Virus genome (UHGV): UHGV-0392283
Strand: one strand, 5' to 3'
Length of the DNA: 37,163 nt
DNA from: a virus
The translations under genes and the position numbers were made by a program. Shown in pieces: positions 9,653 through 10,640 of this stretch. The notes below the pieces were generated by a model. That model was not told where the DNA came from, did no database searches, and worked only from the letters and a program-made list of their open reading frames with translations. Position 1 is the first letter of the stretch; every line of letters begins with the position of its first letter.

Positions 9653-10640
9653 CAATTTTGTTACCCATAAGGCTTTTTATCCTTATGTTCTTATAGTTTC
9701 CTATAAGTTCAGCATATATTTTCACCTTCAACTTAATGATAAGGTGTCAAGCACTCGTGGGGGTATTATATTCTACACTTTTTCTCAATAAAAAGCATAG
9801 GTTCAACCCCTATGCGTTACGGTGATAAGCAGCTTTTATTCTACTTATTTACCTCGGTATTAACTTATTTATTAATTAAAAAATCTACCAACTGTATAGC
9901 GTTATTATTTTTATATCCGTATGTATTGTGAAAATTTTTATGGCACTCTTTACACATTGTTATTCCATTATTAATATCAGTCCTCAATTCCTTATGTTTT
10001 GAATAGTTCATTATATGATGAGCATTAAGATTACCGCTTAAATTGCAACCACATATTTTGCAAGTATAATTATCTCTTTCATAAACTAACTTTCTCCATC
10101 TGAAATAAGAAGGGACTTTCCTTCCGATAATTCTATCTTGTTCGCTTTTACTAGCATCATACCAATAAGCATTTTCACCAGAATAATACTTTGAAAAACC
10201 AGCATTTTTACATTCTTCTGAACAATAATGTCTTTTATGCCTTTTGATCATAGCAGGTATTCTATATATTTCTTTACCGCATACAGAACAATTAGTTTTT
10301 ACTTTAATTTCACTGTCAGCTCCTTGACATTTTCGAGAACAATATCTCGATTCAACAGTTGAATTAAATTTTTTTCCACATACTATACAAATATTTTTTA
10401 TTTTTGATTTTCTAATCTTAGTACATTCTTTACATTGATTACGAAAACCATCTTTAGCCTTTTTTTCTTTGTGAAACTCACTATAAGGTTTAATAACTCC
10501 ACAATCAGTACATTTCTTCATTCAATCACCTCAAAATATATTATATATTAATTATAACACATTTTTGGTAATAACCATTAATAAGCTTAGTCTTTACCGA
10601 ATTTGCTCGATTATTCAATATACATTTCTGTATAAGGTGG
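9653..10640 (-). mobile_element. Candidate self-splicing (group I-type) intron carrying an HNH homing endonuclease and interrupting the tape measure gene
   Basis: A ~988-nt insertion between the conserved tape-measure segments ...STLFG(K) and (K)EAMSGWL. The 5' exon ends in T and the insert ends in G (...AAAATTG|AAAGAG). The HNH ORF occupies the middle. Exon 1's frame runs 34 junk codons into the insert before stopping. A GC-rich hairpin (GCATAGG...CCTATGC) sits in the 3' part. Confidence 0.4.
9865..10521 (-). CDS. HNH endonuclease with multiple CxxC zinc ribbons (intron-encoded or free-standing homing endonuclease)
   Basis: Repeated CxxC pairs (CTDCG, CKEC, CIVCG, CSVCG, CKICG) and a C-terminal NAHHIMNYSKH...CKECH HNH motif. 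RBS GAGGTGA. Confidence 0.7.
   Translation of the reverse strand: MKKCTDCGVIKPYSEFHKEKKAKDGFRNQCKECTKIRKSKIKNICIVCGKKFNSTVESRYCSRKCQGADSEIKVKTNCSVCGKEIYRIPAMIKRHKRHYCSEECKNAGFSKYYSGENAYWYDASKSEQDRIIGRKVPSYFRWRKLVYERDNYTCKICGCNLSGNLNAHHIMNYSKHKELRTDINNGITMCKECHKNFHNTYGYKNNNAIQLVDFLINK

Follow-up and report, generated by a model that had tools for sequence, protein, structure and literature searches.

Group I introns within the tape measure protein (TMP) gene are already known from other phages of Gram-positive bacteria, and what we describe here, in the virus genome UHGV-0392283, is the correction of an annotation and no discovery. The window, as we call the whole stretch of 37,163 nt that was analysed and in whose coordinates all positions are given, carries a TMP gene on its minus strand that is interrupted by a 999-nt insert (10651..9653). 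From its sequence, this insert is very probably a mobile group I intron of type IA, IA2-like. The study of Tourasse and Kolstø (2008; PMC2504315) describes group I introns of types IA1 and IA2 at three TMP sites in prophages of the Bacillus cereus group (TMP-IVS1, TMP-IVS2 and TMP-IVS3a/b), homologous to each other and fitted to their different sites through the P1 and P10 pairings. It also reports that HNH or GIY-YIG endonucleases have been swapped between homologous introns, some of which have no homing endonuclease gene (HEG), that most bacterial and phage group I introns halt the ribosome within P1/P2, and lists a TMP intron in Lactobacillus delbrueckii phage JCL1032 (EU409559) (PMC2504315). 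The insert in the window shares with the B. cereus introns the host gene, the IA type, the re-tailoring of P1/P10 and the exchange of endonucleases, and it differs in its host, Clostridium perfringens, in its phage-plasmid background, in a P7 that reads GCAUA/UAUGC and not GACUA/UAGUC, and in the missing early in-frame stop (PMC2504315). The JCL1032 intron is nearly identical to it in P8, P9.1 and the 3' tail, but has the canonical P7 and a different P6 and P7.1 region.

The td and nrdB introns of phage T4 are IA2 introns, experimentally self-splicing, that encode the endonucleases I-TevI and I-TevIII, the latter, from nrdB, of the HNH family. Like the insert in the window they have a U·G pair in P1, a P3/P7 pseudoknot, P7.1/P7.2 and an endonuclease open reading frame (ORF) in a peripheral helix, although the T4 ORFs sit in P6a and ours in P5, and unlike it they have a stop codon at or soon after the start of the intron. 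The DNA polymerase intron of Bacillus phage SPO1 is another group I intron of a Gram-positive phage with an HNH homing endonuclease, I-HmuI; the host genes differ, and the HNH protein of the window had no significant match to any solved I-HmuI chain.

A precise insertion in a single gene

The gene, its two exons and the insert are as follows.

9653..10651, minus strand: whole candidate group I intron, 999 nt, delimited by empty-site comparison and structure
10652..12025, minus strand: TMP exon 1, about 456 codons, ending ...STLFG, from PF10145 and the alignment to phiSM101
7409..9652, minus strand: TMP exon 2, 747 aa plus stop, beginning AAA GAG GCT (KEA), from the alignment to phiSM101
9865..10521, minus strand: HNH homing-endonuclease gene, 218 aa, looped out of P5, from Pfam and PHROG

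The N-terminal part of the TMP contains the PhageMin_Tail domain (PF10145, E 7e-61 in Pfam). Deletion of 10651..9653 leaves an open frame, and the product aligns to the TMP of Clostridium phage phiSM101 as a single high-scoring segment pair, residues 2-1006 against 132-1134, with 69% identity and 2 gaps, the two proteins being identical through AAAVSTLFGKEAMSGWLAIINAS at the junction. One alignment running across the junction indicates that a single gene has been split by an exact insertion. The predicted ligated exons read ...CTTTTTGGT/AAAGAGGCT... and the predicted peptide across the junction ...STLFGKEAMSGW... The empty site, GGT/AAAGAA, is found in phiSM101 and also in NZ_CP075995, a plasmid of C. 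perfringens that shares 89-95% identity with the window over the exons; in both the TMP is a single gene. None of the plasmids in PLSDB carried this intron, and an exact 30-mer of the exon 1/intron junction had zero matches in species-representative genomes.

The insertion falls on a phase-0 codon boundary (G/K) within the conserved ...STLFG/KEAMSGW..., at the end of the TP901-type core. Alignment of the DNA alone leaves an ambiguity of 3 nt, with AAA repeated at both junctions, and just one placement, ...UUUGGU/AAAAUUC...AAAAUUG/AAAGAGG, combines a U ahead of the 5' splice site with a G as the final intron base, so that exon 1 ends in T10652 and the insert runs from A10651 to the terminal G9653 (omega-G).

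The initial annotation had already proposed a TMP gene split by an insertion of about 1 kb with a free-standing HNH/zinc-ribbon ORF, an exon 1 ending in T and an insert ending in G, all of which we recovered, and its 3' edge (9653/9652) was exact. The N-terminal part of the TMP does run to ...AAAVSTLFGK, and its continuation resumes with KEAMSGWLAII, but the K codon after STLFG occupies 10651-10649 and not the neighbourhood of 10638, which puts the proposed 5' edge about 12 nt off. Small corrections apply to the remaining measures: the ORF lies between 130 and 212 nt of non-coding sequence (about 120 and 210 had been given), the exon-1 frame stays open for 36 codons of the intron, that is 35 junk codons past the K (34 had been given), encoding ILCHLIQK... 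among other residues and ending at a TAA at 10543-10541, and the exon-2 frame is open upstream as far as 9676, with a stop at 9679-9677, instead of to 9677.

Anatomy of the predicted ribozyme

The helices of a group I core could be assigned along the insert, in the order of transcription.

10638..10655, minus strand: P1 hairpin, from explicit pairing, with which the unconstrained minimum free energy (MFE) fold agrees
10619..10634, minus strand: P2 hairpin, UAUACA-GAAA-UGUAUA, with a GNRA tetraloop
10605..10610, minus strand: 5' strand of P3, UCGAGC, pairing with 9752-9747 and followed by J3/4 (AAA)
10580..10600, minus strand: 5' strand of P4 (10600-10595), J4/5 (UAAA...), and 5' strands of P5 (10592-10590) and P5a (10584-10580)
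9854..9869, minus strand: 3' strands of P5a (9869-9865), P5 (9864-9862) and P4 (9859-9854)
9821..9853, minus strand: P6/P6a hairpin, GGU-AA-AUAAGUAG...CUGCUUAU-C-ACC
9811..9817, minus strand: 5' strand of P7, with A9817 paired to U9711, C9816 bulged and GCAUA (9815-9811) paired to 9716-9712
9760..9810, minus strand: P7.1, GGGGU (9810-9806) with ACCCC (9764-9760), enclosing P7.2
within P7.1, minus strand: P7.2, 9800-9790 with 9783-9773, which with P7.1 makes up the IA-type insertion between P7 and the 3' strand of P3
9747..9752, minus strand: 3' strand of P3, GCUUGA
9723..9746, minus strand: P8 hairpin, CACCUU...AAGGUG
9711..9722, minus strand: J8/7 AAAAUA (9722-9717), 3' strand of P7 UAUGC (9716-9712) and U9711
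9667..9707, minus strand: P9 hairpin with a GAAA loop (9707-9690) and P9.1 hairpin (9686-9667)

In P1, the end of the exon, UGGU (10655-10652), together with the intron's AAA, pairs with the guide UUUGCCA (10644-10638), with a wobble between U10652 and G10641, while in P10 UUCUUU (10647-10642) pairs with AAAGAG of exon 2 (9652-9647) over 6 bp. P2 has another stem and the same loop in the relatives, and P4 reads AAUUCGG/ACCGAG in the Rfam alignment of a related intron. The 3' strands of P5a, P5 and P4 close the loop that bears the ORF and overlap the final codons and the stop of the HNH gene. P7 and P3 form a pseudoknot, in which G9815-C9712 is the predicted guanosine-binding pair. J8/7 and the 3' strand of P7 together make up the "S" element, for which canonical introns have AAGAUAUAGUC, a version present at two other loci of our collection, L130 and L133; a hairpin identical to our P9 is labelled P9 in L133 by the Rfam alignment. 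No pair is broken in P3, P4, P6, P7, P7.1, P8, P9 or P9.1 of the window.

Extra helices P7.1/P7.2 and a P9.1 extension are said to mark subgroup IA in the scheme of Michel and Westhof. The window has both, P7.1/P7.2 lying between P7 and the 3' strand of P3, and we would place the predicted intron in IA, as IA2-like.

Folding and covariation

The intron without its ORF, folded by MFE with no constraint, reaches -78.8 kcal/mol (z = -4.6) and yields every helix outside the pseudoknot: P1, P2, P3, P4, P5, P6/6a, P7.1, P7.2, P8, P9 and P9.1. Covariation was examined in an alignment of 66 relatives with less than 88% mutual identity, made with MAFFT and without structural fitting. Paired bases occupied 86.6% of its cells, against 36-42% when the partners were slid by 1-3 columns, double changes were seen in 73 of 85 pairs, and not one of 500 shuffles attained any of these measures.

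P3 is 99.2% paired with double changes at all 6 pairs, and P7 is 100% paired, two of its pairs alternating between AU and GC (34/32 and 36/27). The closing pair beside the bulge covaries (AU 36, GC 27, CG 3), and the G-C pair that corresponds to G9815-C9712 (columns 207/347) is invariant in 66/66, preceded by the bulged nucleotide (C9816). Double changes accompany P7.1 (99.4% paired, 5/5 pairs), P8 (88%, 6/6), P6 (92.5%, 9/11) and the P9 region (94.5-97.7% in P9 and 98.9% in P9.1); P4/P5 is 93.9% paired. P7.2 exists in the window and in a subset of the relatives, and is 85% paired where present. P1 and P2 were misaligned by MAFFT and are uninformative in this alignment, hence P1/P10 was checked by hand.

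A guide rewritten for each site

Six exon contexts were followed by hand: those of the window, Staphylococcus phage 6ec, Javan355/MissB1, locus L017, phiCD211 and IMEP5. In all of them the guide makes two pairings, one with the last 4-6 bases of exon 1 that ends in a U·G and one with the initial 4-8 bases of exon 2, and in all of them its sequence is different, the exon ends of the five others being GGGU, GCGAU, GGCGAU, AUGCU and AGGU. Such re-tailored P1 and P10 pairings, as predicted here, are how the internal guide of a group I intron behaves. An automated choice of the best P1 in 83-85 members restored the ORF in 50 of 83, compared with 31-40 of 83 with a shifted site. We did not use this weak enrichment as evidence, since the heuristic for P1 is noisy and tandem introns or neighbouring HEGs are found at many of the loci.

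Catalysis, splicing in vivo, and the activity and specificity of the endonuclease are inferred. The late transcript would fold into the P1-P9.1 core, and an exogenous guanosine bound at G9815-C9712 would attack after U10652, held in P1 by its U·G pair with the guide. The guide would then position exon 2 through P10, G9653 would occupy the guanosine site, and ligation of the exons would free the intron and give a message for a single TMP of ca. 1200 aa. Translated from its own ribosome binding site (RBS) in the P5 loop, the HNH protein would nick or cut TMP alleles without the intron near the insertion site, into which recombinational repair would copy the intron together with the endonuclease gene (homing).

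Covariance models

A covariance model was built from 61 3' halves, each reaching from the 3' strand of P4 to the last base, with the window left out. It matched the window once, at 9651-9861 (minus strand), over the full length of the model with 175 bits (E 4e-39), a score equal to those of the best relatives. The JCL1032 TMP intron, which is annotated in GenBank by a joined coding sequence (CDS), was also matched over the full length (96 bits, E 2e-21), and the two introns of L133 gave 114 and 95 bits, for which the Rfam group I model, RF00028, gives 48.6 and 74.6. The latter score exceeds the gathering score of RF00028, and the helix assignments of Rfam agree there with ours. Membership of the window's intron in the curated family is therefore indirect, through homology, as RF00028 calls introns related to it. 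In the td/nrdB region of T4 our model found one match of 7 bits, inside exon 2 of nrdB, which is due to chance, and no sequence homology. The terminase intron of phage LL-H was unmatched by the same model, so that LL-H gives no experimental anchor; this intron reportedly splices in vivo.

The P7 of the window's clade, GCAUA/UAUGC, is two compensatory swaps away from the canonical GACUA/UAGUC. The canonical form occurs in relatives, including JCL1032 and the introns of L130 and L133, whose core motifs AACGACUAG and GAUAUAGUCUG are shared with T4 nrdB.

Relatives and mobility

The ca. 210 nt between the stop of the HNH gene and exon 2 are 70-83% identical, in a sensitive blastn search, to stretches in ca. 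100 phage records, mostly unannotated, from hosts that include Staphylococcus, Bacillus, Clostridioides, Streptococcus and Lactobacillus. The same arrangement, i.e., the N-terminal part of a TMP, an endonuclease gene or no ORF at all, the conserved 210 nt and the C-terminal part of the TMP, is found in 6ec (Staphylococcus), Javan355, MissB1 and phiJH1301-1 (Streptococcus) and phiCD211 (C. difficile), and IMEP5, also a Staphylococcus phage, has the same intron layout in its large-terminase gene. The ORF-less P4-P5 pattern recurs in at least 120 IMG/VR stretches, a few of them chance matches, and the clade in 108 phage records.

One IMG/VR locus, L132, has the same intron with an HNH gene at the same TMP site. 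Its intron is 92-94% identical to that of the window, far above the 65-73% of the flanking exons, a contrast in keeping with horizontal transfer through homing and not with descent alongside the gene. The two differ in P2, where L132 has an in-frame TAG and the window CAG, a change that also strengthens P2.

The HNH gene of the window is preceded by the RBS GAGGTGA at ca. 10533-10527, itself preceded by a TGTGTTATAAT-like motif, and the stop of the exon-1 frame lies ca. 20 nt upstream of its start. A sigma-70 promoter scan of the insert showed no enrichment over shuffles and gave no support to a promoter of its own. In the protein, zinc-ribbon repeats of the CxxC type are N-terminal and the HNH motif is C-terminal, with matches to PF13391 (HNH_2, E 1.9e-6) and PF01844 (HNH, E 6.8e-6) at residues 154-199 and to PHROG 1271, "HNH endonuclease" (E 1.6e-32). 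It is 95% identical to the L132 copy and 39% to the HNH protein of the 6ec TMP intron. The best PDB match, a marginal one (E 0.004), was to a group II maturase in its HNH domain, and no structural inference was drawn from it.

The P5 loop holds endonucleases of different families, HNH in the window and 6ec, and GIY-YIG/NUMOD in Javan355, IMEP5 and PT1-1. Read by eye, other IMG/VR loci have ORFs in other loops: P8 in L018, P7.1/P7.2 in L036 (GIY-YIG-like in appearance) and P9 in L038 (of zinc-ribbon type). The differing loop positions suggest independent invasions by endonucleases.

Several TMP genes contain two group I introns, at 2146-2729 in phiCD211 (locus L007), 856-1058 and 1346-2346 in L132, and 596-936 and 2308-2564 in L133. 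In phiCD211 the intron of this family ends ca. 32 nt before a second, unrelated one, recorded as Intron_gpI, leaving a mini-exon of ca. 32 nt. At ca. 1625-1912 of L130, which is the C. perfringens plasmid NZ_CP075921, a different group I intron, which has no ORF and whose P7 is canonical, interrupts a related TMP gene at GLMANSG/IKASQAG; this site is uninterrupted in the window, and the plasmid gene is annotated as two TMP CDSs.

The tape measure gene and its phage-plasmid

The TMP gene does not start with any of ATG, GTG and TTG. Its strong Shine-Dalgarno sequence, AAAGGAGGT, is followed by ATT ATT ATA (12037-12019, minus strand), in which the ATA aligns with the ATG of the phiSM101 TMP. One of these codons, ATT or ATA (12025/12022/12019), probably serves as the true start, which would make initiation non-canonical, on AUU or AUA; the alternative is that the start codon has been lost. 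The TTG at 11626 proposed by the ORF tool is internal to the gene, 131 codons too far in.

The window is 93-100% identical to C. perfringens plasmids of ca. 35-38 kb, and plasmid functions are found downstream of the TMP.

1751-2593, minus strand: RepA_N
3205-4113, plus strand: ParM-like actin
801-1199, minus strand: NikA-like protein

Taken together, the plasmid matches and these genes indicate that the host element is a phage-plasmid.

Upstream of the TMP, after the tail tube gene, a 111-aa ORF (12256-12591, minus strand) is followed, after a short gap and in another frame, by a 51-aa ORF (12044-12199, minus strand), and the two resemble the pair of tail assembly chaperones made by frameshifting. 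Elsewhere in the window, a 305-aa ORF (25209-26126, minus strand) has a GIY-YIG domain (PF01541, E 5e-8) and is a "homing endonuclease" in PHROG. It is apparently free-standing, the ca. 600 nt upstream (26127-26730) have no ORF of at least 90 aa, and neither the intron model nor Rfam gave an intron there.

Alternative explanations

A number of observations weigh against a functional intron in the window. RF00028 had no match in it even at E ≤ 10, nor in its closest relatives. The initial annotation had proposed this search and would have counted a blank against itself, but its sensitivity is limited: in the td/nrdB region of T4, used as a control, RF00028 gave td 40.3 bits (the gathering score is 50) and missed nrdB. 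Given this control and the scores in L133 we take the Rfam negative as weak evidence, and it probably reflects the limited sensitivity of RF00028 combined with the variant P7 of the clade. The exon-1 frame traverses the 5' strands of P1-P5 (10651-10541) without an early stop, and ribosomes reading through them could impair folding. A terminator-like hairpin with a U-run (9815-9795, minus strand; GCAUAGG-GGUUGAA-CCUAUGC), built on the 5' strand of P7, competes with P7, P7.1 and P7.2, and the homologous spot in phiCDIF1296T is annotated as a "terminator". A compensatory change in relatives, from CUAUGC/GUAUAG to CUGUGC/GUACAG, favours P7.2 as the selected structure. Finally, positions 1-7400, beyond the TMP, are devoid of distal tail, baseplate or lysis genes, and the phage-plasmid is possibly defective; in a defective element whose TMP has no canonical start codon, selection for splicing may be relaxed.

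These facts give some weight to a decaying or inactive group I intron, in which case the products would be a truncated N-terminal fragment, exon 1 extended by 35 junk residues, perhaps accompanied by a separately initiated C-terminal fragment, or the TMP would simply be unneeded. The lost early stop (CAG for the TAG of L132), the frame open for 36 codons into the core, the alternative hairpin over P7, RepA and ParM genes in the place of distal tail and lysis genes, and the missing canonical start are all as decay would have it. We nevertheless regard it as improbable, because every core helix is intact, the insert scores as high as any relative (175 bits) on a model built without it, the HNH ORF is of full length with its motif undamaged, and the exons are open and collinear with the phiSM101 TMP over ca. 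1000 residues. It is much less probable still that a free-standing HNH cassette without a ribozyme lies between two naturally separate TMP genes, its 3' flank being a travelling regulatory or terminator element. The separate annotation of the two halves in 6ec, Javan355, MissB1 and the plasmid L130, the "terminator" of phiCDIF1296T and the silence of Rfam would agree with such a cassette. However, more than 100 loci have the conserved flank but no ORF, elsewhere the flank is joined to unrelated families (HNH or GIY-YIG), its long-range helices covary, with P3 reaching across the ORF and forming the pseudoknot with P7, the guide pairs with both exons, and the uninterrupted homologues are single genes; a naturally split TMP was rejected.

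Readings as an intein, as a group II intron or as translational bypassing have in their favour the bare fact that a gene is interrupted, nothing else, and we give them next to no credence. A gap of 999 nt far exceeds known bypassing, and the group I fold explains the insert fully. As an intein the insert was rejected because it is not in frame, stops after 36 codons, contains an ORF with its own RBS and start, and has no intein blocks; as a group II intron because it has no RNA match and no reverse transcriptase or maturase ORF, only zinc ribbons and HNH. The precise insertion, the fold, the covariation, the guide pairing, the model score and the empty sites lead us to prefer the mobile group I intron, for which every defining feature that a sequence can offer is present, as the initial annotation had suspected.

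Implications

Two further readings concern how this intron may behave. The loss of the early stop, which leaves ribosomes to translate 36 codons of the 5' half of the core, might couple translation of the HNH protein to that of the TMP. With the terminator-like hairpin over P7 competing with the catalytic fold, a kinetic race between folding, translation and termination could set the supply of the distal two-thirds of the TMP and hence tail assembly, but we consider it improbable that intron folding is wired to expression in this manner. As a lesser reading, the clade with the variant P7 may be a subfamily of large size, one that goes unrecognised by the curated model and moves among TMP and terminase sites by rewriting its guide.

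For annotation, two "tape measure" ORFs and an "HNH endonuclease" would become one gene plus a mobile intron, and the same mis-annotation, as a split TMP or terminase, appears in deposited records from Staphylococcus, Streptococcus and Clostridium. Estimates of tail length from the length of the TMP would have to use the spliced protein of ca. 1200 aa. An intron clade that is common in phages of Gram-positive bacteria appears to escape RF00028, with the consequence that pipelines under-call it. For these phages, the TMP of the window would be another case of an established pattern, in which introns home into the most conserved stretch of a structural gene.

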